A DNA stretch of 64,000 nucleotides from Planctomycetales bacterium (GCA_030612725.1 JAUWNJ010000001.1:134648-198647); one strand, 5' to 3'; positions 3,988 to 57,987 are shown, counted from the first letter of the stretch. Program-made: numbers and translations. The notes: generated from the letters alone by a model not told the origin.

Positions 3988-4809
3988 TCAATCATCTTTT
4001 TTTGGTTTTTCCAGCAGCATTTTCTTCAGCAGTTTCGGTACGCCCATTTTCAATCGACCGGCGAAAGTAAATTTCTGACGTTGCCTGCTGATGATTCTCC
4101 GGGCGAAGGCCTTTGCTACTCCTTTTCCGTCGGCGCGTGCGCGGACTTTGAACATCGCGGTCTTTCCGGACGGGATGGGTTTCAGGTCCGGCTCGTTAAT
4201 CCGCATAACTACTTCGTCGCCGTATTTCAGAGCGCCGCTGAGTTCCTCCAGCGGTAGTTCGAACGTGTTGGGGTTATCTACTTCGAAGGACAGTTCCATC
4301 CATGACGGCGGGCCTTTGATATACCTGACCTTGCGGAACCGCCAGGACGGTTTCCGAAACGCCGGCATCAGACCGTTGCGAGATACGCGCACAGGTATCT
4401 TCAGGCCTAGAAAATGAAACTTCGACTCGGTGCTGAACCGGTACGGAATTTCCTCTTTCGCGCGAATTTTCGATAACAGCGGCGCCAAATTCGCAAATTC
4501 CACTGAAACCGGTACGCGGACGATTGACGTCTTATTAGCGGGCAAATTCATGACGGGCGTCGGCAGCGCGCCGTGGACGATCTCCGTACCAGCGGACGTA
4601 ACCTGGTAATTCAGGCTCGAAAAATTGAGTTCGAAACCATTGGGGTTGGTTACCTTCATATCGAAGAGAAGATCGATCTTCTTGAAATCGAAACCCCCCA
4701 CGTCGATACTGTGAATCTTGACAATGGGCGGCTTGACGCAGCCGACCGAGACGCTCATCAATAAGGCTGCGACGATTGCGACTGACGCTCTTTGGCGTGT
4801 CGTTCTCAT
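3988..4809 (-). CDS. Lipoprotein with LEA14-like/WHy (LEA_2) domains
   Basis: Lipobox VSVGC. Two repeats resemble the NDR1/HIN1-like late-embryogenesis-abundant fold (IDVGGFDFKKIDLLFDMKVTNPN; SFEVDNPNTFELPLEELSGALKYGDEVV). Confidence 0.45.
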   Translation of the reverse strand: MRTTRQRASVAIVAALLMSVSVGCVKPPIVKIHSIDVGGFDFKKIDLLFDMKVTNPNGFELNFSSLNYQVTSAGTEIVHGALPTPVMNLPANKTSIVRVPVSVEFANLAPLLSKIRAKEEIPYRFSTESKFHFLGLKIPVRVSRNGLMPAFRKPSWRFRKVRYIKGPPSWMELSFEVDNPNTFELPLEELSGALKYGDEVVMRINEPDLKPIPSGKTAMFKVRARADGKGVAKAFARRIISRQRQKFTFAGRLKMGVPKLLKKMLLEKPKKDD

Positions 4810-23328: not shown

Positions 23329-25848
23329 TCATCGTCGGGTAATGCGTGCGAGGCACCATTCGCCAAGCATCAGCGCCAGGCCGACCCCGAGCAACCACGG
23401 CCAAAGGTCTGTCATTCGACGAGAATATGACTGCTTCAGCACGTCGCGTAGTTTCTCCGCGGGAACGATTTTCCCGCCGGTCAGATCGGCAAGCCGTCGA
23501 AGAGATTTGCTGTCCGCCCCAATTGATCGGTACTCGCACCGGTACAGTACGCTTGCCTGACCACGCCAGAGAGTAACGCCCTTGTGGTCCCGAACGGCTA
23601 CGCCTGCCGGCAAATCCGCAGGCCAATCGGTCCGGGCGAGATACTTACCGGGAGCCACCTGGTCAAAATTCGCGCCGCGAGTCTCTTCGCCGCCGACGGA
23701 GATAATCTCGGCCAAAAGTTCCAGTTTGTTGACGGGCAAACCTTTGTTCCGTGCAGTCAGTATGATTTCAAGCCGCCCGGCACGTCGCTTAATTGCCGCG
23801 TCAAACCTCGGATCGTTGATTCCGCGAAGAGTCCATTTAATTGAGGCAGAGATCAGTTTCGCTGCCTCGGCGGAACGAGCCCACGCTTCGTTGTCATTTT
23901 TCGAGATGGGCACCGCCAGGCAGACGCACCGGCCCAGTCCGGACCGACATCGCCCGCCGACAGGCTCGCCACCTGTTGTGCGGACGAGTATTTCAGCGTT
24001 TTTTCGAGCGGCAGAGAGGATGTAGGCGTCGATGTCCGGCAGGGCGGTCAGTCCGGTGTCGAACAGTGCAGCCGGAATGGTCAGCGCGGTGCGCTTCCGT
24101 CGCAGAACGTCGCCCCTGCCTCGCCGAACGAGTTTTGCGAAAACTTTCGCCAATCCGGCAAGCCGGTCCCGCTCGACGTAGGGCGCACCCAGCAATTTCG
24201 CCAGCGATTTGATGGGCGCGACAGTATCGCCCGACGACGCCGAAGAATTTTCCCGAATGGCAACCACAGCCAGGCCGGCTTTTGAGCGACGCAAAGCGTC
24301 GGCCCATTCGGAGGGGTCAAACTGCTCGGTTTTCAGGTCGCTGACAATCAGCAGCATCGTTTTTCGACCTGTCGGTGGCGGTTTTGACAGGGCGGCTTCG
24401 ATGGCGGGGGTTACTCTGGTCGAACCGGATGGACGGACTTTTTTCATCGCCTCGCGCAAGGCTGTGAAATCGCCCGGCGAGTTGCCGCTGTCATAAACCA
24501 CTTCGGGGCGATCGGAAAAGGCGATGACCGTCAGCGTATCTCGTGCGGTGAGGTGGTCTTTGAGTGCAATGACGGCTTCGGAGGCGAGGTCGAATTTTAT
24601 CTGCGATGACCCGCCGCCGGTGCGGGCGGTTAGCTGGGTCATCGAACCGGACTTATCCAGCAGCACCACCAGCCGCAGCGGACGACGCTCAAACGGATTT
24701 GCCAGAAGCGGCAGTACCCGGTTGAGCGGGTCTTCCCGATCGGACGGCGTTTCGTGCGGGCCTGTACCGATAAGGGTCAATCCACCCCCCGCGCGGACAT
24801 ACCGGGCCAGTGCCCGCCGCTGCGCCGACGAAAGAGACGAACCCGTCGCGTCGGACACGATAACAGCGGAAAATCGGGCCAGTGCCGAAGCGTCATCCGG
24901 CATGGCATCGTGCGGAATGAATGTAACAGGATAACGAATTTCGCGGAGTATAGACCGGGCATCCTTTCCAATACCAACTGCGGCGATGACCTGGCGGACC
25001 GGAAGGACCAATGTCGAAGCCGAGTCGTTCTCGGTGATAACCACGTCGCCGGTAAGACTTACGGAGTATTGGCCCCATGCGTCGGACGCGACGGCGTCGG
25101 TAACTCGAACGGTGCTCGGCGAATTGCCCGTCAGCGACAGTTTCCGGACTCCGAGCGGATGAGATTGTCCTCGACGGGTGATTGTCAGCGTCCGTTTCAA
25201 CGGGGAATTGGCGGAAACATCGGCCGTTATTTCGACCTGCGTATCGGAGATTCGTCGGGCGGCGAAAGCGACGATTCTTGCATCTGCCGGCGGTGCGTTC
25301 AGCGGAACGATGCGTACCTGAACGCCAAGGTCGGCAACGGCCTGGGCGGCGGCCGAGTAGTCAGTCTCGGTGAATCGCCCGTCGGTTTCGATAATCGCAG
25401 CGGACAGGGCGTTTGGGCCTCGTGATGCGATTAGCCGCAATGCCGGTGCGATAAGCGTGGCGTGGTGGTGCAGGTTTTCAACCTGTGCGGCGTGGGAGAT
25501 ACCGTCGGCGAAACCGAACTGCTCAACCTTCGCGCCGGACGGGAAATCCGATTTCCGAATGCCCCGCCCCTGCCCCCGCACCGATCCGGACACATCGCTC
25601 AGCAACAGGTAAGGTAAATCCGCCTGCTTTCCGATCGGCGCTTTCGGGCGCGCCAGAGCAGTCGCCACCAGCGTCAGCGCGATGCACTGCGCGACTACAG
25701 CCGGGATGGGAATTCGCCGCCCATGCCGCCCGGCAAACCACGCCGACAGTACCGGCATCGCCGCCAGCGGGATCGTAACCAGCCAGACCGGGCAGGTGAA
25801 TAACAACCAACTTTCGCCGATAACGGAACCGACCATCCGGTACTCCAC
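23329..25848 (-). CDS. Large BatA-like membrane protein with a VWA domain
   Basis: N-terminal double-TM segment (WLLFTCPVWLVTIPLAAMPVLSAWF...); VWA MIDAS motif LVVLLDKSGSM; C-terminal TM helix. Confidence 0.65.
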   Translation of the reverse strand: MEYRMVGSVIGESWLLFTCPVWLVTIPLAAMPVLSAWFAGRHGRRIPIPAVVAQCIALTLVATALARPKAPIGKQADLPYLLLSDVSGSVRGQGRGIRKSDFPSGAKVEQFGFADGISHAAQVENLHHHATLIAPALRLIASRGPNALSAAIIETDGRFTETDYSAAAQAVADLGVQVRIVPLNAPPADARIVAFAARRISDTQVEITADVSANSPLKRTLTITRRGQSHPLGVRKLSLTGNSPSTVRVTDAVASDAWGQYSVSLTGDVVITENDSASTLVLPVRQVIAAVGIGKDARSILREIRYPVTFIPHDAMPDDASALARFSAVIVSDATGSSLSSAQRRALARYVRAGGGLTLIGTGPHETPSDREDPLNRVLPLLANPFERRPLRLVVLLDKSGSMTQLTARTGGGSSQIKFDLASEAVIALKDHLTARDTLTVIAFSDRPEVVYDSGNSPGDFTALREAMKKVRPSGSTRVTPAIEAALSKPPPTGRKTMLLIVSDLKTEQFDPSEWADALRRSKAGLAVVAIRENSSASSGDTVAPIKSLAKLLGAPYVERDRLAGLAKVFAKLVRRGRGDVLRRKRTALTIPAALFDTGLTALPDIDAYILSAARKNAEILVRTTGGEPVGGRCRSGLGRCVCLAVPISKNDNEAWARSAEAAKLISASIKWTLRGINDPRFDAAIKRRAGRLEIILTARNKGLPVNKLELLAEIISVGGEETRGANFDQVAPGKYLARTDWPADLPAGVAVRDHKGVTLWRGQASVLYRCEYRSIGADSKSLRRLADLTGGKIVPAEKLRDVLKQSYSRRMTDLWPWLLGVGLALMLGEWCLARITRR

Positions 25849-25863
25849 CGATTAGTAGTAGTA

Positions 25864-25945
25864 TGTAGGCTGGGACGGAGCAAAGCGGAGTCCCACCTTT
25901 TTGCAGCGAGAAAGGTGGGACTCCGCTTTGCTCCGTCCCAGCCTA
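25864..25945. repeat. Perfect 36-bp-arm palindrome (hairpin) between two same-strand genes
   Basis: GTAGGCTGGGACGGAGCAAAGCGGAGTCCCACCTTT-ttgcagcgag-AAAGGTGGGACTCCGCTTTGCTCCGTCCCAGCCTAC. Half-copies occur at 38437-38462 and 9763-9778. Confidence 0.7.
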
Positions 25946-26815
25946 CTATTGACCACCGACTACCATTTTTTTGACTGGCGTTGCGAAGACCTCCGGCACG
26001 ATTATCACGACCGTCTCGAACTGAAGAGCCTTCCTCTGGTGTATCAGGAAATGATATCCCGGACTGCTCCGTCGTCGCGCTTCTGCCGCAGGACCGATAA
26101 GAATAAAATCGCCCCGTGGAACCTTTAATCTGAAATCCATACCGTCGAGGCCGTAATAGATCGGTTCGGAGACAAGGGCGTATTTTCCCGAACGTTTAAT
26201 ATATCCTTTGCGTCGCCGGTTGGAACGGATCGCCGCAGCCGCCGTTATGTGAACAGCCGAGGGGTCGTCGTAGTTTATTGTGGCTGTTGTTACCAGCACG
26301 TTGTCGCCGGCGGGGTAATCTCGCCCGACGAGCGATGCGTCCCGACGGTAGGTGAAAATTGTCTGCGATTTATTAGAAGATTTAAAGACTATGGGCATGG
26401 GCCTTCCGGGGCTGGACAAAACCGAGGTCTGAACCAGTGGTTGTCCCGTAAGACTCTGAAGAATGGCGGTAACGTTTTTCCATGCGCCCTTGCGCCCCAA
26501 CCCGACGCGGACACCGTTGCCGGTCAATGCCGAACCAACATGAGCGCCCGCCGGTTCTTCGTCGAGGTAACTCCACAAGTCCTCCGAGTCGCTCACCGAC
26601 CCCACCGGTACCTGCACGGTTATCAGGTTCGTGCGTATCACCAGGACGAAATCTCGAGGATTTTGCTTGTGTGCATCAGTGAAGGGTTCCAGCGTAACGC
26701 CTTCAAGGGTCGGAGGCTCGCCGCGAGGGAATGGGGACTCTTCCGGGGTTTTGCACCCACCCAAAGCCGACAATACCGCAATAAGCAGCACACAGATTGG
26801 ACGCCATCGTTTCAT
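25946..26815 (-). CDS. Hypothetical lipoprotein
   Basis: Lipobox ALGGCKT; no recognisable domain. Confidence 0.45.
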   Translation of the reverse strand: MKRWRPICVLLIAVLSALGGCKTPEESPFPRGEPPTLEGVTLEPFTDAHKQNPRDFVLVIRTNLITVQVPVGSVSDSEDLWSYLDEEPAGAHVGSALTGNGVRVGLGRKGAWKNVTAILQSLTGQPLVQTSVLSSPGRPMPIVFKSSNKSQTIFTYRRDASLVGRDYPAGDNVLVTTATINYDDPSAVHITAAAAIRSNRRRKGYIKRSGKYALVSEPIYYGLDGMDFRLKVPRGDFILIGPAAEARRRSSPGYHFLIHQRKALQFETVVIIVPEVFATPVKKMVVGGQ

Positions 26816-36340: not shown

Positions 36341-36756
36341 ACCAAAATATAGTGCTTTTTTATAAGTGTCGTTCTCTAAAGGGATTCCCTTCAATAAAAA
36401 ATTTGCCCAACAGGAATTAACACCCCCGAATTACTGTTTTTACCGAGATTGATACCATATGGTGGGTGCAATGCGCTCGGCAGGCACAAATTGTGGAAAT
36501 CCTGTTGGAAGGTGTTGGTAATTTTCCTGTTATGAGGTGATACCGCGTACGATAAGTTAATGCGCCCGTCTGAGATAAACGAGTCGCGATTGCAAGGGAG
36601 CGGTCATTAAGACTTTCGCATTGGTCTGACCGCTCGCTTGCGGTCGCGGCTGGTAAGATGCTCCTGCACGATGAGCGCATTATTTTTCGTACGTGGTATC
36701 TCTCGCCAGGCGATCAAAAAACTTTCACTTCAACTTGACTTACTGTCGAGTCGATG

Positions 36757-36789: not shown

Positions 36790-37170
36790 ATGCCCAGACC
36801 CAGATTACAACGGATAGTATCGGCTCAACCGGTCGTTACGGTTTATAAGCCGGCCGGCGTACCCGCCGGCTCTCTTGAGTGGGTCAATCTTACACTTGAT
36901 GAGTTCGAGGCGATCAGATTGATTGATGGCGAGGGTTTGGACCAGGAATCCGCTGCGGGACAAATGGGCATTTCCCGCCCGACGGTAACGCGGATATTGG
37001 CTTCTGCCCGGGGTAAAATTGCCCGGTTCCTCACGCACGGTCATGCTCTTCTGATTCAGGGCGGCCCGGTTATTTCCCCTCTTCCCGGGCGCGGACCTGG
37101 AAGAGGTGGGGGGTTGGGTCGTGGTCGCGGCGGACGCGGTGGACGCGGAAGAGGAAGAATGGGAATATGA
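36790..37170 (+). CDS. DUF134 (UPF0251) predicted DNA-binding protein with a C-terminal RGG/Gly-Arg tail
   Basis: MPRPRLQRIVSAQP...YKPAGVP...LTLDEFEAIRLIDGEGLDQESAAGQMGISRPTVTRILASARGKIA matches the DUF134 core; tail GRGPGRGGGLGRGRGGRGGRGRGRMGI. Confidence 0.6.
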   Translation: MPRPRLQRIVSAQPVVTVYKPAGVPAGSLEWVNLTLDEFEAIRLIDGEGLDQESAAGQMGISRPTVTRILASARGKIARFLTHGHALLIQGGPVISPLPGRGPGRGGGLGRGRGGRGGRGRGRMGI

Positions 37171-38057
37171 AAACGTTTTTCGATTGCATTCCGTGTTTTG
37201 TACACCAGTCGCTGGACTCGGTTCGGATGACGACGACTGACGAGGCGGTCCACGAGCGGCTGCTGCGCGAGGTACTGCGAACCCTCGCCGAGATGGACAT
37301 GCGCCAGTCGCCGCCGGCAATGGCCAAACGCATCCACCGAATTATTCGGGAGATGACAGGCCAAGCCGATCCGTACCACGACGCCAAGGAGCGATTCAAT
37401 CGGTTGGCAATGGATATTTATCCGGAACTCGCCGCGCAGGTCGAGCGTTCAGCGAATCCGCTCGAAACGGCTGTTCGTCTGGCGATCGCCGGTAATGTCA
37501 TAGATATGGGCGTGAACCATAACCTGAGCGACGAACATGTCCACGAGGGTATCGACCATGCCCTGGACGCGCCGTTTGAGGCCGACATTGCCGCATTTGG
37601 CGAAGAGATTTCGAACGCGGCAAATATCCTCTATCTCGCCGACAACGCGGGCGAGATCGTCTTTGACCAACTGCTGATAAAGCAGTTGTTGGCCGAGAAG
37701 GTAACGGTCGCGGTCAAAGGTTCGCCAATCATAAACGACGCCACAATGGAAGACGCCGAAACGACCGGCCTGACCAAACTGGTAAAAGTTATCGATAACG
37801 GTTCGGACGCGCCCGGCACGATTCTTGAAGATTGCAGCGACGATTTTCGACGGCGTTTCGACGAAGCGGACCTGGTCATCGCCAAGGGTCAGGGCAACTA
37901 CGAGACGCTCAATGAGGTCGGAAGGGACATTTTTTTCATTCTCAAGGCCAAATGTCCGGTAATCGCCAGAGATATTGGTTGCCATGTCGGCAGCCTGGTT
38001 TTGCGTCGGTCCCGGTCAACAATAATGAAAGAAGGTGATAGTCATGCCAAGAGGTAA
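37167..38057 (+). CDS. DUF89-family protein (ARMT1-like metal-dependent damage-control phosphatase fold)
   Basis: N-terminal CIPCFVHQ; RLAIAGNVIDMG; GSPIINDAT; strong resemblance to archaeal stand-alone DUF89 proteins. Overlaps the DUF134 stop by 4 nt. Confidence 0.6.
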   Translation: MKTFFDCIPCFVHQSLDSVRMTTTDEAVHERLLREVLRTLAEMDMRQSPPAMAKRIHRIIREMTGQADPYHDAKERFNRLAMDIYPELAAQVERSANPLETAVRLAIAGNVIDMGVNHNLSDEHVHEGIDHALDAPFEADIAAFGEEISNAANILYLADNAGEIVFDQLLIKQLLAEKVTVAVKGSPIINDATMEDAETTGLTKLVKVIDNGSDAPGTILEDCSDDFRRRFDEADLVIAKGQGNYETLNEVGRDIFFILKAKCPVIARDIGCHVGSLVLRRSRSTIMKEGDSHAKR

Positions 38058-38346
38058 CGGAACAGGCCCGGCGGGTGGCGGCGGACAAGGTAGCGGACAA
38101 GGTAGCGGACAAGGTGGTAGACAAGGTGGTGGACAAGGTGGTGGACAAGGTGGCGGACAAGGTGGCGGACAAGGTGGCGGACGCGGACGAGGACAGGGAC
38201 GCGGACGAATGGGCGGACCATTTGCCGCAGGAGCAGGCGGAGATTGCGTCTGCCCGAATTGCGGGCACAAGGCCCCACATGTGGCCGGTCAACCCTGTAA
38301 TCAGCAGTCCTGCCCGAAGTGCGGTGCAACAATGGCCAGAGGCTAA
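38044..38346 (+). CDS. DUF5320-like small protein: MPRGxGTGP N-terminus, (GQGG)n repeat, C-terminal double CPxCG zinc ribbon
   Basis: MPRGNGTGPAGGGGQGSGQGSGQGGRQGGGQGGGQGGGQGGGQGGGRGRGQGRGRMGG...GDCVCPNCGHKAPHVAGQPCNQQSCPKCGATMARG. An AAGGTGA RBS sits 7 nt upstream. The start overlaps the DUF89 gene by 14 nt. Confidence 0.5.
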   Translation: MPRGNGTGPAGGGGQGSGQGSGQGGRQGGGQGGGQGGGQGGGQGGGRGRGQGRGRMGGPFAAGAGGDCVCPNCGHKAPHVAGQPCNQQSCPKCGATMARG

Positions 38347-38470: not shown

Positions 38471-39202
38471 TCATCGGTTTGCGTGTCGCCGGAATGCTGT
38501 CCCTGCCAGAAGCCAACTGACTGTGAGCATCGTCGCCAAGACCAGGATGGGTATCCAGGGAGTAGGGAACCACGATTGGCCTGTAACACCGAAGCGCAGC
38601 AACTCCACCGTATGCGTCAGCGGCGAGACCATTGCAATCGGTCTGGCCCATGCCGGAAGGGCGTCGAGAGGCATGAACACGCCGCTGATGAACAGGATCG
38701 GGAATCGGAAAAAGTTCAACAGCGTCATCGCCTCGAAGACTTCTCTCACCCGCACCGCGATGATCATGCCAAGCAGGGCGAAGGTCGCCGCTCCGGCGAG
38801 CAGGCCGACGATAAAAACCGGAAGGTGAACCATCGGCATTTTCAGCAGCACCACCAGGCCAAGCGTAAGGACCGTCGAGGTGGCTACGCCGTAGGCCGCT
38901 GCGCTGACGACCTTTCCCAGAACAATCGTCTGATGCGATACAGGCGCAAGGAGCAGACGCTGCAAAGTCCCGGACCGCTTTTCCCACGTAATGACGATGG
39001 CGGCCATTGAGGTATTACCGAACAGGAGGGTCATTCCGATGATCCCCGGCGCAACGGTAAGATAAGTGGAAGGATTCTTGACGTATATGGCAAGCATCAG
39101 GACGGCGGGAAAGAGCAGTCCCCAGGTTACCAGCGGCGGCTTGGAGTAGTAACTTTCGACGTCCTTTCGACTGATGAACAATGCGCGTGCGATTTGGATC
39201 AT
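38471..39202 (-). CDS. ABC-2 type transporter permease
   Basis: Six TM helices; ABC-2 signature region; its start overlaps the ATPase stop (4 nt). Confidence 0.75.
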   Translation of the reverse strand: MIQIARALFISRKDVESYYSKPPLVTWGLLFPAVLMLAIYVKNPSTYLTVAPGIIGMTLLFGNTSMAAIVITWEKRSGTLQRLLLAPVSHQTIVLGKVVSAAAYGVATSTVLTLGLVVLLKMPMVHLPVFIVGLLAGAATFALLGMIIAVRVREVFEAMTLLNFFRFPILFISGVFMPLDALPAWARPIAMVSPLTHTVELLRFGVTGQSWFPTPWIPILVLATMLTVSWLLAGTAFRRHANR

Positions 39203-40155
39203 CGGCGCACCTCCGATCCGGCGGAGTTTTTCTCGAGGATCGCCATGAAGGCCTCTTCGAGACTCGGCGTCTCAGTGCTGATTTTCAGGATTTTCAGGCC
39301 TGATTTTTCCGCCCAGGCGACAATCTGCATTGTGGTCTGGTGGACATCGGCCACCTCGAACCGCCATTTTTCATCTGTGATGTTGGCGGACATAACGGCA
39401 GGGCACGCGGCGAGCAGGGTATCGACCGGGACATTTGCGGAAAAGACTACGGAGAGGATTTCGGCCCCGGCTGCCTGTCTGCCTATCTCGTCAGTCGCGC
39501 CTTCGGTAACGACTTTGCCTTTTATGAGGATGAGCACTTGGTCGGAGAGGTCCTCGGCTTCGGCGAGGTTGTGAGTCGTCAGGAAAACCGTCGTTCCGTG
39601 TCGGTTGATGGTTCGGATGAGTTCCCGAAGCGTCCGTGCGCTGGGCACGTCCAGCCCGGACGTCGGCTCATCGAAAAAGACCACTTCGGGGCTGTGCACC
39701 AGCGAGGCGGCAACGGTCAGGCGGCGTTTCATTCCGCGCGACAGCGCACGGAAGCGAACGGAGGCCTTTTCGGTAAGGTCGAACGTCTCCAGAAGTTCGT
39801 CCACTCGTCGGCGCCGCTCCGACCGCCCCAGGCCGTACAACTGACCGAGGTATTCCAGGTTCCGCCGGCAGGTGAGTTCCGGGTAGAGATTGGATTCTTC
39901 CGGAACGACGCCGATTCGTTGCTTGACGGCGACGCCTTCGCGATCAATGTCGAATCCGCAGACGCTCACCTGTCCGGCGTCGCGGTGCAGCAGACCGGCA
40001 AGGATGTTGATGGTGGTCGTCTTGCCGGCGCCGTTAGGCCCGAGGTAGGCGAATATCTCGCCTCGCCGGACGGTAAAATCGACCCGGTCCAAAGCCACAA
40101 GGTCGCCGTACCGGCGCATCAGGCCACGAACCTCGATTACGTTGTCGTTGCCCAC
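39199..40155 (-). CDS. ABC transporter ATP-binding protein
   Basis: Walker A GPNGAGKTT, signature LSRGMKRRL, Walker B VVFFDEPTSGLD. Confidence 0.85.
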   Translation of the reverse strand: MGNDNVIEVRGLMRRYGDLVALDRVDFTVRRGEIFAYLGPNGAGKTTTINILAGLLHRDAGQVSVCGFDIDREGVAVKQRIGVVPEESNLYPELTCRRNLEYLGQLYGLGRSERRRRVDELLETFDLTEKASVRFRALSRGMKRRLTVAASLVHSPEVVFFDEPTSGLDVPSARTLRELIRTINRHGTTVFLTTHNLAEAEDLSDQVLILIKGKVVTEGATDEIGRQAAGAEILSVVFSANVPVDTLLAACPAVMSANITDEKWRFEVADVHQTTMQIVAWAEKSGLKILKISTETPSLEEAFMAILEKNSAGSEVRR

Positions 40156-40168
40156 ATTTATCTCGTAA

Positions 40169-40241
40169 CACGGGCGTCTCGCCCGTAAGTAGCATGGCCG
40201 TCTCGGCCATGTTCTGTTCTTTCACGGGCGAGACGGCCGTG
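40169..40241. promoter_or_regulatory. Three consecutive short hairpins with GTCTCG/CGAGAC-type loops between the Cys-rich ORF and the ABC ATPase gene
   Basis: ACGGGCG-tctc-GCCCGT; CATGGCCG-tctc-GGCCATG; CACGGGCG-agac-GGCCGTG. Confidence 0.45.
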
Positions 40242-40259
40242 CCACGCCCAATTGCCCTA

Positions 40260-40400
40260 TTTGCAGCAATCATCCTTGGGTGCGCACGGGTGTTCGGTTA
40301 CGTCGCCGTGGCATTTCCGGATCTGCTCGGGCGAGCAGTCTTCGGGTCTGCCCTTCAGGTTTTCGGGCTTTTCGCAACAGGGTTTGTTTTCTTCGCACAT
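40260..40400 (-). CDS. 47-aa Cys/His-rich putative metal-binding peptide, absent from the ORF track; overlaps the ArsR 3' end in another frame
   Basis: MCEENKPCCEKPENLKGRPEDCSPEQIRKCHGDVTEHPCAPKDDCCK (8 Cys, 2 His), TAG stop at 40257-40259. Its ATG lies inside the ...CCATGTGCG... of the ArsR C-terminus, a 45-nt overlap. Confidence 0.45.
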
Positions 40401-40786
40401 GGTTTTATCCTTTCAGAAATTTTCTGTTGACACTGCTTTATGTCGGCGGTGCCAGGTTCTAAAAAACGGTCTGTTACATTTTTCCATTTGGCGATGGTTT
40501 TGTTGTTCAGACGATAGTGAACGTAGTAGCCGTGTTTTTCGTCTGTAACCAGTCCGGCGTCGCGGAGTATTCGCAGGTGTTGCGAGACGGCCCCGGCCGT
40601 TACGCCAAGCTTCGCCGACATCGCCCCGACACACAATGCCCGACCCTTGAGCAACTCAATAATCCGCACTCGTGTATCCACGGACAGGACTTTGCAGATT
40701 CTGGCGAGTTCACGTGCATCGCTCACAGTTTGGCCATCCTTTTTAGTATCCGCTAAAAAACTAATACAAAATCCAGGGAATGTCAA
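40355..40786 (-). CDS. ArsR/SmtB-family metalloregulator
   Basis: Winged-helix core LARICKVLSVDTRVRIIELLKGRALCVGAMSAKLGVTAGAVSQHLRILRDAGLV with the CVG metal-site Cys. Start uncertain. Confidence 0.7.
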   Translation of the reverse strand: MTFPGFCISFLADTKKDGQTVSDARELARICKVLSVDTRVRIIELLKGRALCVGAMSAKLGVTAGAVSQHLRILRDAGLVTDEKHGYYVHYRLNNKTIAKWKNVTDRFLEPGTADIKQCQQKISERIKPCAKKTNPVAKSPKT

Positions 40787-40906: not shown

Positions 40907-42307
40907 ATGCTCGGCGACGCATTTCAACCTGAAATTCGCGAATTGATTATCAGGAAAGATTTCGCGATGCTCAAGAAGTACATGACCGCTCTGGACTCAC
41001 CGGACGTAGCCGAACTTGTCGGCGACCTGGACGGCGAGGAACTCGGCGTAGTCTTCCGTCTCCTTCCACGCCAAATCGCAGCCGAGGTCTTTTCGCTCCT
41101 GGAACTGGAAAAACAGGAACACCTTCTGGAGGTGCTTTACGGTGAGGCCCTTGCCGGCATCCTCAACGAGATGCCGCCGGACGACCGGACGGAACTGCTC
41201 GAAGACCTTCCCGAAGATGTCGCAACCAGGTTAATCGGAAGCCTCAGCCCAGCCGAACGCCAGGTCGCCACCGACCTGCTTCGGTATCCTGAAGATTCCA
41301 TAGGTCGGCTTATGACGCCGGAGTTTGTCGCCATTGACGCCGGCGCTACCGTCCGCGGCGTGCTGGACCACCTCCGCGAAGTCGCACCGCAGAAAGAGAC
41401 CATCAACGTCCTGTATGTCGTCGATTCCGACGGCAGGCTAATAGACGACATCAGCCTGGAAGATTTGGTACTGGCTGAACCCGATTCCGTCGTCGGCGAA
41501 ATTATCGACCGCCACCCGGTAAGCCTCCAGGCCACCGCCGACCGCGAGGAGGCTGTCGATATTATCAAGAAATACGACGCCGTCGCCCTTCCGGTCGTCG
41601 ATGAAACCGGAATCATGGTCGGTATCGTTACCATCGACGACGTGATGGACGTAGCCGAGGAAGAAAACACCGAGGACTTCCAGAAGATGGCCGGCGTCGG
41701 CGCTCTGGAAGAACCCTACTTCGCGACGACTTATCCCGAAATGCTCCGCAAGCGACTGCCTTGGCTGGCGATGCTGTTCGCTGCCGAGATATTGACCGTC
41801 CTTGCCCTGACGAATTTCCAAAACACCCTCAACGTAGCAATGTTCGCGCTGATAGTGCTCTTCATGCCGCTGGTCAACGCCACCGCCGGTAACACAGGTT
41901 CGCAAATGGCAGGTCTGGTAATTCGAGGTCTGGCAGTCCGCGAAATGGAGCCGGGGCACTGGTGGCGGATACTGATGCGCGAATTGGCCCTGGGCTCGAC
42001 GATGGGGGTGATACTGGGCGTGCTGGGAGTGGTCGCTGCGATGGTGCTGCTGAGCCTGGGTCAAGCCGGCGCTTCCATGTCGGATGTCTCGCGATGGTCC
42101 AATGCCATCGCCGTCGGCGTCAGTATCACAGCGGCTGTAATTGTCGCAAATCTCGCCGGAGCCATGATACCGCTCCTGTTCAAACGCCTCGGAATGGACC
42201 CCGCCGTTACGTCCGGCCCGTTCCTCGCCTCAATAATGGACGTAACCGGCGTGATGATATATTTCTCCGTCGCATCGGGAATACTGGTGCTGCTGCAAAC
42301 AACATAG
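40907..42307 (+). CDS. mgtE: Magnesium transporter MgtE
   Basis: MgtE N domain, tandem CBS domains and a C-terminal MgtE TM domain (PFLASIMDVTG). Confidence 0.85.
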   Translation: MLGDAFQPEIRELIIRKDFAMLKKYMTALDSPDVAELVGDLDGEELGVVFRLLPRQIAAEVFSLLELEKQEHLLEVLYGEALAGILNEMPPDDRTELLEDLPEDVATRLIGSLSPAERQVATDLLRYPEDSIGRLMTPEFVAIDAGATVRGVLDHLREVAPQKETINVLYVVDSDGRLIDDISLEDLVLAEPDSVVGEIIDRHPVSLQATADREEAVDIIKKYDAVALPVVDETGIMVGIVTIDDVMDVAEEENTEDFQKMAGVGALEEPYFATTYPEMLRKRLPWLAMLFAAEILTVLALTNFQNTLNVAMFALIVLFMPLVNATAGNTGSQMAGLVIRGLAVREMEPGHWWRILMRELALGSTMGVILGVLGVVAAMVLLSLGQAGASMSDVSRWSNAIAVGVSITAAVIVANLAGAMIPLLFKRLGMDPAVTSGPFLASIMDVTGVMIYFSVASGILVLLQTT

Positions 42308-50270: not shown

Positions 50271-50457
50271 TACTTCGTTGGATTTGAATCTGTCAGCATG
50301 ATGATGCGACACAGACCTGCCCGCCCACTGAAAACAACAAGGAATGCACGGCGGGCAGGCGGGCAGGTCTGTGTCGAATTAATAATGCCTGGAGAGTCAT
50401 TGATTTAATAATGGACAGAATATCTGCAGGCGGTGCCACAGAAAAAGAAAGGCAAAC

Positions 50458-56004: not shown

Positions 56005-56052
56005 ATCTAAAACAAAAAGGCAAACCACAAAGAACACAAAGAAAAAAACTTT

Positions 56053-57987
56053 CTACTTCTTCTGTTCTTTGTGGTCTTTGTGCCCTTTGTGGTTCATTCT
56101 GTCAGTTTCCGTCGGCACGTCGCGTTTTCGGCCCGACAGCAGCAATATGTCTCGCAGATGTTCGATGTTGGACGCATCAGTCCATCGCTGGCGGAATTTA
56201 GGCTCCTGAACGATGTGAGCGATGGCCATCAGGGCGCGAAGGTGATAGTTTCTCTCGTCGCGCGACCCGACCAGGACGAACGCCGCCCGGACCGGCTCGT
56301 CCTGGCCGGCGAAATGCACGCCCTCTTTGCATCGAATCAGGAGGATTTCGAATGTCTTTTCGCCGTCAACGATAATATGCGGGATAGCCAGGCCCGGTTC
56401 GATGACCGTGCTGGAGGCGGTCTCTCGCTGTCGGAACAGTTCGAGAAGGTGCTGCTTGTCGATATCCATTCGCCCGGCCAGGGCTTCGGCAGCGAGGGTG
56501 AACATTTCTTCGGCGGATACTTTTTCGCCGATGTCCAGGATGTCGCACTTGCGGACAAGATGGTCGAACCTGTCGCGGACGACGTCGTCGCGCTCGAGTG
56601 CGATTTCTTTGAGTTCCTCCTCGAGCGTGCTGCGATAGATTTCCTTCGAGACCGCGCTTCGGACCATATAGACCAGCGCGCTTTCCCGGCTGATGCTGCG
56701 TCGGACATAGACGAAATACCAGATAACCCCTGCCAGGGCGAATGCGCCGGTCGTAATCAGCGGGACCGCTCCCATCTCCACGACGAGGAACCCGCACATC
56801 ACAATTCCGCTAATCTGCATCCACGGATACAGCGGCGAGCGGAACAGCGGGCGGTAGTTCTGGATTTTGCTGCCGCGCATGATAAGCACGGCTACGTTGA
56901 CCAGCAGAAAGAGCATGATCATCATCGTACTGGCGACCTTGACGAGGTTTTCGATACTCAGCAGTGTGATGACGACGATCATGAAACCGCTGGTGATGAA
57001 GATGCTCACGTGCGGCGTACCGAAGCGGGGCGAAATCTTCTGGAGGAATCCCGGAAGCAGTCCGTCGCGGCTCATTGCCATCGGGCTGCGGGAGGCAGAT
57101 AGTATGCCGCTGTTGGCAGTGGTGATAAACGCCAGCATCGCCGCCGCCGACAGGAGAATCAGCCCGCCTTTGCCCATGAATTTCTCGGCTGCCAGGCTCA
57201 GCGGCGTGAGATTGTTCTCAAGTGTATCTGCTTCCATCACGCCCACCACTATGAACGCAGCGGCGATGTAAAAAAGGGTAACGACCAGAGCGGCCAGGAA
57301 CATCCCAGCCGGAATGTTCCGTCCGGGATGATGGACCTCTTCGGCGATGCTGGCGACCTTGGTCAGGCCTCCGTAGGAGATGAAGACCAGTCCGGCCGTG
57401 GCGAAGACCTCGCCCCATCCCTTGTCCATAAAATTGGCGAAGTTTTCAAGCTCCATGGCGGGTGCTGGCATGCCCTTGACGACGAACACGCCCAGAATCG
57501 CCAGCAACACGGCTACCATAACGATTTGAAGCCGGCCTACGCCCTTGACGGTCAGGATGTTCAGGACGGTGAAGAACACGCAGGCGGCAATGGCGACGCC
57601 CTTAATCGGCCATTCGCCAATCTGTTCGCCGGGCAAAACAAGCCTGGCGAACGCACCAATACCGATGAGGGCGAATGCGGTTTTCAGGGCGATGCTGAAC
57701 CAGTTGGCCAGGCCCGCCAGCGTGCCCGGCAGCGGACCCATGCTGCGCTCGATGAAGAAGTAACTTCCCCCGCTCTTGGGCATTGCGGTTGCCAGTTCGG
57801 CCTTGGAAAGCATCGCTGGGATCACCATCACACCGGCCAGCGCGTAAGCGAGAATCATCGCAGGCCCGGCCTTGGCGAACGCCAGACCCGGAAGGACGAA
57901 CAGACCGGAACTTATCATCGCGCCGGCTGCGATGCAGAAAACGCCCCAGAATCCGAATTTGCGTTCAAGTTGAGCCAGTTTTCTCAC
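56053..57987 (-). CDS. APC-family amino acid permease fused to a C-terminal PTS EIIA(Fru/Ntr)-type domain
   Basis: 12-TM APC core (GSGLFVLPG...), then about 150 aa resembling EIIA type 2 (IPHIIVDGEKTFEILLIRCKEGVHF..PVRAAFVLVGS). Confidence 0.65.
   Translation of the reverse strand: MRKLAQLERKFGFWGVFCIAAGAMISSGLFVLPGLAFAKAGPAMILAYALAGVMVIPAMLSKAELATAMPKSGGSYFFIERSMGPLPGTLAGLANWFSIALKTAFALIGIGAFARLVLPGEQIGEWPIKGVAIAACVFFTVLNILTVKGVGRLQIVMVAVLLAILGVFVVKGMPAPAMELENFANFMDKGWGEVFATAGLVFISYGGLTKVASIAEEVHHPGRNIPAGMFLAALVVTLFYIAAAFIVVGVMEADTLENNLTPLSLAAEKFMGKGGLILLSAAAMLAFITTANSGILSASRSPMAMSRDGLLPGFLQKISPRFGTPHVSIFITSGFMIVVITLLSIENLVKVASTMMIMLFLLVNVAVLIMRGSKIQNYRPLFRSPLYPWMQISGIVMCGFLVVEMGAVPLITTGAFALAGVIWYFVYVRRSISRESALVYMVRSAVSKEIYRSTLEEELKEIALERDDVVRDRFDHLVRKCDILDIGEKVSAEEMFTLAAEALAGRMDIDKQHLLELFRQRETASSTVIEPGLAIPHIIVDGEKTFEILLIRCKEGVHFAGQDEPVRAAFVLVGSRDERNYHLRALMAIAHIVQEPKFRQRWTDASNIEHLRDILLLSGRKRDVPTETDRMNHKGHKDHKEQKK

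Follow-up and report, generated by a model that had tools for sequence, protein, structure and literature searches.

Introduction

ArsR/SmtB repressors are the textbook model of bacterial metal sensing and, to our knowledge, every known sensing site of the family lies within the repressor itself. In SmtB from Synechococcus, the alpha3N site takes one ligand from Cys61 and the others from the N-terminal arm; in sites of the CmtR, CadC and AfArsR type, a flexible terminal tail provides Cys ligands to a core Cys. Here we analyse an arsR operon in a 64,000-nt stretch of DNA from a Planctomycetales bacterium (GCA_030612725.1 JAUWNJ010000001.1:134648-198647; hereafter, the window), in which the repressor gene is overlapped by a gene for a 47-aa Cys/His-rich peptide and is followed by three hairpins and the genes of an ABC-2 exporter. 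An original prediction, made from the sequence, had seen in these parts a metal-responsive efflux module with an unusual leader, the peptide being either a genuine overlapping gene of the metallothionein or metallochaperone kind or the result of a frameshift that split a longer ArsR with a Cys-rich, metal-sensing tail. We found arsR, the 47-aa open reading frame (ORF), the three hairpins and the ABC ATPase and permease genes where they had been placed, and the peptide sequence exactly as quoted. The explanation of the whole that we favour, and hold to be fairly probable, is an autoregulated arsR-peptide-ABC operon in which the peptide is the cognate partner of ArsR and the hairpins are repetitive extragenic palindromic (REP) elements.

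Results

The peptide family

The window peptide contains 8 Cys and 2 His in 47 residues. Its gene had been described as unlisted, but an identical protein was already a called gene in NCBI/Logan data, on a contig of 202,353 bp. A word-indexed search returned 48 homologues, with E-values down to 1e-26, and an exhaustive profile search gave 367 clusters at 50% identity, nearly all of 43-111 aa. Scanning one genome per species, we identified 517 peptide loci, all of them in metagenome-assembled genomes, and the lineages carrying them include Planctomycetota, Desulfobacterota, Hydrogenedentota, Armatimonadota, Anaerolineales, WOR-3, TA06, Verrucomicrobiota and others. The locus counts that follow refer to 80 species-level loci unless another denominator is given.

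The family motif is MC…C-x-KPENLKG-PEDCSPEQIRKCHG…HPC, and the consensus of the module (alignment A1) reads M-C-x(3-8)-C-[QE]-K-P-E-N-L-K-G-x-P-E-D-C-S-P-E-Q-I-R-K-C-H-G-x4-H-P-C. In this alignment M1, C9, C22 and C39 are invariant, and conservation reaches at least 90% at C2, C30, H31, H37 and P38. The spacing of the candidate ligands, C-x12-C-x7-CH-x5-H-x-C, is itself conserved, and the retention of four Cys and two His per module makes a metal-binding role of the peptide plausible. Family forms of 74-81 aa are tandem two-module versions. Neither the window peptide nor any one of the 48 homologues had a match in Pfam or NCBIfam, PDB sequence and profile searches gave none for the module, and the peptide neither matches the Pfam metallothionein families nor has CxC/CxxC clusters. 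For the peptide alone, AlphaFold predicts a short helix at residues 24-31 only (predicted local distance difference test score, pLDDT, 61), a result that is uninformative and compatible with a metal-dependent fold. A search of the literature found no paper on the family or on this ArsR subtype.

In essentially all loci, those with in-frame fusions to arsR included, an AAGGAG-like site lies 6-9 nt before the peptide ATG. The homologues and their conserved Cys/His columns, the 517 loci and 367 clusters, the Shine-Dalgarno site and ATG kept throughout the loci, and overlap substitutions that are synonymous in the peptide frame only (see below) show that the 47-aa ORF is a genuine gene, initiated separately, for a small protein of a widespread, unnamed family. 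This conservation, and the linkage described below, support the first proposal of the original prediction, a genuine overlapping gene in an ArsR-controlled operon with an ABC-2 exporter.

The arsR-peptide junction

In the window, the last 15 arsR codons overlap the peptide gene and are read in an alternate frame. The predicted overlap is real, although it measures 46 nt rather than 45 and the peptide frame is -1, not +1, relative to arsR. The likeness between the two readings at this point (KPCAKK and KPCCEK), which had attracted attention, carries no demonstrated significance; the tail of ArsR owes its Cys to a TGT read across the peptide's ATG-TGC.

The small ORF exists in related genomes both separate from arsR and fused to it, and the junction takes three states: (i) a gap of 1-159 nt between the genes, in 19 loci; (ii) an out-of-frame overlap of 43, 46, 49 or 52 nt, which recurs in several phyla (47 of 79 loci) and is present in the window and its closest relatives (L008 and L009); and (iii) an in-frame ArsR-module fusion, in 11 loci, all from Desulfobacterota (L031 3656-4120 and L081 3656-4114 among them). 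Within the overlap class, the arsR stop is a TGA inside the peptide's cTGAag in 47/47 loci, and the overlap lengths vary solely by whole-codon differences in the peptide N-terminus. Since the same overlap and stop position recur across species and phyla, the split of arsR and peptide is ancient and not a frameshift error.

A recent frameshift or a sequencing error that split a longer ArsR with a Cys-rich tail would account for two overlapping ORFs and for the existence of in-frame ArsR-module proteins. It is already refuted by this conservation: the overlap is shared by many species and phyla as well as by the closest relatives, the peptide has its own Shine-Dalgarno sequence and ATG, and the in-frame fusions among the loci are confined to one phylum. 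We give it practically no credence. One part of the idea stood, however, since the peptide is homologous to the C-terminal tail of longer, fused ArsR proteins.

These fusions are numerous. With one of them as the query, 1196 proteins matched at E<=1e-10, and the best 120 of the 1196 are 152-196 aa long, match over about their full length and are annotated merely as 'ArsR family'. The fusions, of which P0099 and P0161 are examples, retain the invariant Met-Cys (M114 and C115 of alignment A2; ATG-TGY) and a strong internal Shine-Dalgarno sequence, GAAAGGAGG, the ArsR frame reading a consensus Glu-Arg-Arg just before the Met-Cys. Because this sequence and the ATG are kept, the fusion genes probably yield dual products, the fusion and the free module.

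Between the window and the 91%-identical L008, 3/3 substitutions in the overlap are silent for the peptide and change an amino acid of ArsR; selection therefore acts on the peptide frame, and the ArsR tail, its Cys included, is a by-product. From the arrangement of the two genes, translation of the peptide is predicted to be coupled to that of arsR.

The overlap also raises the question of programmed -1 ribosomal frameshifting, which would make some ArsR-module fusion in the split lineages and thereby mimic the in-frame fusions. The peptide frame does lie at -1, fused products are tolerated elsewhere, and the conserved Lys-Pro codons AAA-CCC create a heptamer of the X-XXY-YYZ form, A-AAC-CCU. 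A heptamer in which YYY is CCC is, however, not a known efficient slippery site, and this one is explained by the coding constraint on the peptide; in addition, no stimulatory structure was seen in the overlap and the 19 loci with a gap do without any overlap. Such frameshifting is in our view very improbable.

The ArsR repressor

The repressor is a winged helix-turn-helix protein (HTH_5, PF01022, E=8e-14; NF033788, 78.4 bits against a cut-off of 55). Its ORF occupies 40786-40355 in full; the GTG at 40726, which lies 11 nt after AAAAAGG, is likely the true start, and public data contain a called gene for exactly this 123-aa protein. The best PDB match is SmtB (E=3e-11), the two proteins having an LCVG motif in common and Cys32 of ArsR being aligned to Cys61 of SmtB; the PDB matches cover the winged helix domain only. 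Cys32 is the only invariant Cys among the partner ArsRs (74/74 distinct homologues), in which His50 and His70, in the recognition helix and the wing, are also conserved (n=74). We looked within ArsR for a complete known sensing site (alpha3 CVC, alpha3N, alpha5 or alpha4C) and found none: the second Cys of the alpha3 CVC site is Gly, the alpha5 ligands of SmtB are not conserved and the N-terminal arm is absent. With a single invariant Cys and with neither arm nor alpha5 ligands, the repressor by itself thus lacks any complete known sensing site. This incomplete site, the translational coupling and the massive gene fusion would, by Rosetta-stone logic, make the module the ligand-binding partner of ArsR.

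The main rival to this proposal takes the peptide as a metallothionein-like buffer, or as a metallochaperone that passes metal or metalloid to the methyltransferase or the exporter, with ArsR sensing alone according to the smtB-smtA logic. The 8 Cys and 2 His of the window copy would suit such a role, as would the two-module forms and second copies, the co-transcription of the peptide gene with the exporter, and a low AlphaFold confidence, which is typical of metal-dependent folds. However, just 4 of the Cys are conserved, the clusters and the family matches expected of a metallothionein are missing, the fusion of a buffer to a low-copy DNA-binding repressor (more than 1000 cases) makes poor sense for sequestration, and an ArsR sensing alone would have to do so without a complete known site of its own. 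We regard this explanation as doubtful.

The operon and its neighbours

An arsR homologue lies directly upstream of the peptide gene, on the same strand, in 68 of the 77 loci with room for it (88%). An ABC ATPase gene is found within 1.5 kb downstream of the peptide gene in 40/63 loci (about 63%) and an ABC-2 permease gene downstream of the ATPase in 39/63, while 19/73 loci (about 26%) have a gene for a 200-217-aa S-adenosylmethionine methyltransferase between the peptide and ABC genes. We considered the methyltransferase as a possible ArsM and rejected this, since none of its Cys is invariant and its scores fall far short of the ArsM cut-offs, as they do of those for DVU_1556.

The company of a small Cys-rich peptide, a methyltransferase and an ABC exporter in one operon could also be read as a biosynthetic cluster, with the peptide as an exported product (a metallophore precursor resembling the ribosomally synthesized and post-translationally modified peptides) that is the ABC-2 substrate and the methyltransferase as its tailoring enzyme. 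Yet conservation extends over the entire peptide and no leader can be told apart from a core, other maturation enzymes are absent, roughly three quarters of the loci do without the methyltransferase, and in more than 1000 proteins the peptide is fused to a cytoplasmic transcription factor. There is thus very little likelihood that the peptide is exported.

The window features of the operon are all on the minus strand (Table 1). Upstream of arsR, the layout TTGACA-N17-TAnnAT recurs in most related loci; a consensus promoter scan of the window did not list the operon promoter because its -10 is weak. Directly after the promoter, ATTAGCGGAKACTAAAAT or a TTAAG…CTTAA variant occupies the same place in loci from many phyla, and the putative operator of the window is identical in L008. 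Promoter and putative operator together span 40786-40740, and on sequence evidence the core repeat after the -10 has the position of an autoregulatory operator overlapping its own promoter. The layout is that of an autorepressed ArsR operon, in which the motif would be the site bound by ArsR.

Table 1. Positions of the operon features and REP units in the window
Feature	Position	Strand	Remarks
Operon promoter, sigma-70-type	40758-40786	-	-35 TTGACA 40786-40781, spacer 17 nt, -10 TAGTTT 40763-40758; read from the sequence
Putative ArsR operator	40740-40759	-	Inverted repeat TTTTTAGCGGATACTAAAAA, core TTAGCGGATACTAA, just 3' of the -10
arsR, SmtB-like ArsR/SmtB repressor	40355-40726	-	123 aa from GTG 40726; HTH_5, NF033788 and SmtB matches
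Shine-Dalgarno of the peptide gene	40408-40414	-	GAAAGGA, inside arsR, 7 nt before ATG
47-aa Cys/His-rich protein gene	40257-40400	-	One C-x12-C-x7-CHG-x4-HPC module; homologues, alignment; overlaps arsR by 46 nt
arsR stop TGA	40355-40357	-	Embedded in peptide codons CTG-AAG (Leu15-Lys16 of PENLKG)
REP unit C	40223-40245	-	GTGG-CACGGCCGTCTCGCCCGTG, sense to the operon mRNA; plus strand reads CACGGGCGAGACGGCCGTG-CCAC
REP unit B	40189-40211	+	GTAG-CATGGCCGTCTCGGCCATG, stem perfect over 7-8 bp; arranged with unit C as a head-to-head dimer
REP unit A	40165-40187	+	GTAA-CACGGGCGTCTCGCCCGTA, tandem to unit B at 24-nt spacing; pairs with unit C in the long RNA hairpin
ABC transporter ATPase, DrrA-like	39199-40155	-	GTG start 10 nt after the REP trimer; ABC_tran E=7e-31
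ABC-2 type permease	38471-39202	-	ABC2_membrane E=3e-26; 4-nt overlap with the ATPase gene

Divergent from arsR lies a gene for an MgtE Mg2+ transporter (40907-42307, plus strand). This neighbourhood is kept in the closest relative, L008 (92% identity), and the arsR promoter region is therefore shared with the upstream region of mgtE. On the other side of the operon, a plus-strand trio of genes (36790-38346) converges on the ABC-2 permease gene and comprises a DUF134 regulator, an ARMT1-like damage-control phosphatase and a 103-aa ORF that is Gly-rich over a long (GGGQ)n run and carries a zinc-ribbon (CxxC…CxxC) at its C-terminus.

At other loci, the space between the peptide and ABC genes holds variable inserts: DsrE-like genes (L012, L016, L057, L068, L072, L085 and L087), TauE (L048), cupin (L043 and L061) and membrane MarR-like genes (L022, L030, L068 and L087). 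A second peptide copy occurs at L057 and L068. The DsrE and TauE neighbours hint at sulfur chemistry. In some loci of the fused type (for example L031, at 4121-4198, and L044), the arsR-module gene and the ABC genes are kept apart by a strong hairpin followed by a T-run, terminator-like in form, which may serve as an internal attenuator and determine how much regulator is made relative to transporter.

The hairpins

The three hairpins that had been described as tandem are three palindromic units at 40169-40241 (40165-40245 with their 4-nt tags), members of one 18-nt family at spacings of 24 and 30 nt. Only two of them are in tandem, however, the third being inverted, and the best RNA fold is one long nested hairpin rather than three side by side (-57.7 kcal/mol, z = -6.8), in which the outer units pair into a stem of about 24 bp around the middle hairpin. 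For palindromes that combine a GTCTC/GAGAC loop with a stem of 5 bp or more, the count was 2, against 0.17 expected in shuffles, and a degenerate 19-mer pattern of the unit matched 7 times, against 0.37 expected. An Rfam scan of the region gave only sub-threshold noise from microRNA models (E>=1). We also considered an intrinsic terminator and rejected it, as the operon strand lacks a U-tract and the sole terminator-like call is on the opposite strand.

The units are not an unusual leader of the operon, as had been supposed: none was found in 87 related peptide loci (0/87), where the junctions after the peptide gene mostly show tight coupling or heterogeneous, unrelated hairpins. A metagenome scan for the unit core CAYGGSCGTCTCGSCCRTG, by contrast, found the unit on at least 120 unrelated contigs, many with 2-7 copies and some with copies at several sites. 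Among the matches listed, no REP-bearing contig carried the peptide operon. Identical units occur on unrelated metagenome contigs, for example L096 and L157; L125 has a 7-unit tandem array with a 25-nt period (609-777), L104 has 7 units over 4 sites, and L191 is also multi-site.

Of 140 units among the matches listed, 117 have a GT-tetranucleotide on exactly one side (GTGG in 58, GTAG in 24), against a GT dinucleotide frequency of 5%; oriented by this tag, the loop of the 140 units is GTCTC, ATCTT or GTCCC. Neighbouring units at 22-100 nt are arranged head to head ('+-') in 27 cases and in tandem ('++') in 10, again among the matches listed. A crude test shows the units to be depleted in long stop-free stretches (65% against a 91% background). 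GTAG REPs as published have stems of 5-13 bp, occur predominantly as head-to-head dimers, form trimers of a singleton plus a dimer and are found in Planctomycetes and Verrucomicrobia (Di Nocera et al. 2013, PMC3733652). The window units resemble these REPs and the mosaic elements they build (BIMEs; PMC3733652) in their 4-nt GTAG-like tag, GC-rich palindrome, stem of 6-8 bp and loop of 3-5 nt, in the combination of a head-to-head dimer and a singleton 24-30 nt apart, in their intergenic position inside an operon and in the dispersal of the unit over many contigs; they differ in that the commonest tag is GTGG, not GTAG. The unit core was not found in any paper searched. With a GC-rich palindrome, an unpaired GTAG-like tag (GTAA, GTAG or GTGG) and a dimer/trimer arrangement with spacers of 20-100 nt, the three hairpins have the form by which REPs are recognised, and we identify them on these features as a trimer of GTAG-tagged REP elements. 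They are neither a special leader nor part of the conserved system, as indicated by their absence from the 87 loci, by the methyltransferase gene at that position in the closest relatives and by the dispersal of the unit.

That the triple hairpin is instead an operon-specific regulatory element (an attenuator, a riboswitch-like leader or an operator array) giving metal control of the ABC genes would be suggested by its place between the peptide and ABC genes, by its great stability and the alternative pairings possible among the three units, and by the terminator-like hairpin at the same junction in some loci, such as L031 and L044. The element is nevertheless missing even from the 91%-identical neighbour, has neither a U-tract nor an Rfam match and is scattered over at least 120 unrelated contigs, none of those listed carrying the operon; we think it improbable that it serves the operon in this way.

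From the promoter as far as GTGGCRCGGSCGTC, which makes up half of the first unit, identity between the window and L008 is about 90%; beyond it the two diverge completely. Past this point L008 runs into a methyltransferase gene, which L009 has too, and the window into the rest of the REP trimer and the ABC genes. L008 (4150-4165, against window 40232-40245) retains only the first 14 nt of unit C (GTGGCGCGGGCGTC) before its methyltransferase gene. Synteny is thus broken within a REP unit, a position that hints at a REP-associated rearrangement and suggests a role of the REP in the loss or gain of the methyltransferase gene.

REPs inside operons are known, as in malE-malF. By analogy, the trimer may shield the arsR-peptide mRNA against 3' exonucleases and may reduce ABC expression or uncouple it. 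Elsewhere in the window, a perfect 36-nt inverted repeat with a 10-nt loop (25865-25946; GTAGGCTGGGACGGAGCAAAGCGGAGTCCCACCTTT … AAAGGTGGGACTCCGCTTTGCTCCGTCCCAGCCTAC) lies between the minus-strand ORFs 23329-25848 and 25946-26815; it begins with GTAG and ends with CTAC, and looks like another, unrelated GTAG-tagged palindromic element of this genome. Long imperfect inverted repeats at 36579-36654, 50304-50379 and 56023-56094 (arms of 20-28 nt, 82-95% complementarity) are unrelated in sequence to the units at 40165-40245.

Discussion

We propose that the operon of arsR, peptide, ABC ATPase and ABC-2 permease genes is autoregulated, being transcribed from the TTGACA/TAGTTT promoter and guarded by the conserved inverted repeat as operator. 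The Cys4His2 module would be a cognate, detachable, ligand-sensing partner of the SmtB-like ArsR, acting in trans as a free peptide here and in cis as a fused tail in other lineages. On binding a thiophilic inducer, either a soft metal or metalloid or a reactive sulfur species, the module together with Cys32 of ArsR would release the repressor from the DNA, and this release would switch the exporter on. The physical interaction of ArsR and peptide, the sensing role and the nature of the inducer are what we infer from gene arrangement, conservation and fusion.

Several points weigh against this proposal. AlphaFold has low confidence in the module alone, and in a fused ArsR-module protein it predicts the ArsR domain confidently and leaves the module undocked, with a pLDDT of 50-67. 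No arsR adjoins the peptide gene in 9/77 loci, and the ABC genes are missing from about a third of the loci. A buffering or chaperone role would account equally well for the two-module forms and the extra peptide copies, and the DsrE-like, TauE and methyltransferase genes hint at sulfur or methylation chemistry over plain metal efflux. Binding of the peptide to metal or to ArsR is a prediction from its residues and gene context. As regards the hairpins, their membership among the REPs follows from their form, and the 64-kb window has one cluster of this unit, compared with up to 7 units at up to 4 sites on metagenome contigs.

The most specific form of the proposal is a two-polypeptide ArsR/SmtB sensor, in which a free, translationally coupled protein of 40-50 aa would supply Cys4His2 ligands in trans around a single alpha3 Cys, the pair having toggled repeatedly between separate, overlapping and fused states. 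We put this forward tentatively, as a possibility. If the peptide is a sensor subunit, this would (i) be a new sensing architecture for the ArsR/SmtB family, (ii) define a widespread, unnamed detoxification or export regulon of anaerobes (at least 517 species), and (iii) bring the inducer and substrate of a common arsR-ABC-2 operon within reach of direct tests. Whatever its role, gene order, predicted translational coupling and gene fusion link an unnamed family of Cys/His proteins of 40-80 aa with one ArsR subtype in hundreds of species of Planctomycetota, Desulfobacterota and other anaerobe phyla, and thousands of 'ArsR family' annotations conceal an extra domain with an internal start site. 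The hairpins carry a practical lesson: stable structures inside operons should be compared with the REP families before they are called leaders.

How does this locus relate to the systems already described? The exporter resembles those of the DrrAB type, with which it shares an ABC_tran ATPase with a DrrA-like C-terminal domain and an ABC2_membrane permease in tandem, their genes overlapping by 4 nt. The window pair nevertheless scores below the drrA and drrB equivalog cut-offs (the ATPase reaches 294 bits with TIGR01188, drrA, against a cut-off of 312), and the assignment holds at family level only. The SAO system of Haft and Gwadz and the hgcAB ArsR2 regulator were considered as matches and rejected as different systems, and in the literature we found no description of such a split ArsR/SmtB sensor.

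With smtB-smtA of Synechococcus the locus has in common the pairing of a repressor with the gene of a small Cys-rich protein, and SmtB is its best match of solved structure. In spite of these similarities there are important differences: (i) the ArsR has neither the alpha5 ligands nor the N-terminal arm of SmtB; (ii) the peptide is unrelated to SmtA/BmtA; and (iii) the peptide gene is co-transcribed and, as predicted, translationally coupled with arsR instead of being divergently transcribed, and is fused to the repressor in other lineages. Repressors of the CmtR, CadC and AfArsR type follow the same logic as the one that we propose, with one core Cys and the other ligands coming from an appended Cys-rich segment, and the in-frame fusions resemble such tailed ArsRs. 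In contrast to those tails, the segment described here is a conserved Cys4His2 module of about 40 residues with its own start codon, and in most lineages it is a separate polypeptide. The pair of peptide and ArsR is an uncharacterised variant of ArsR/SmtB regulation.

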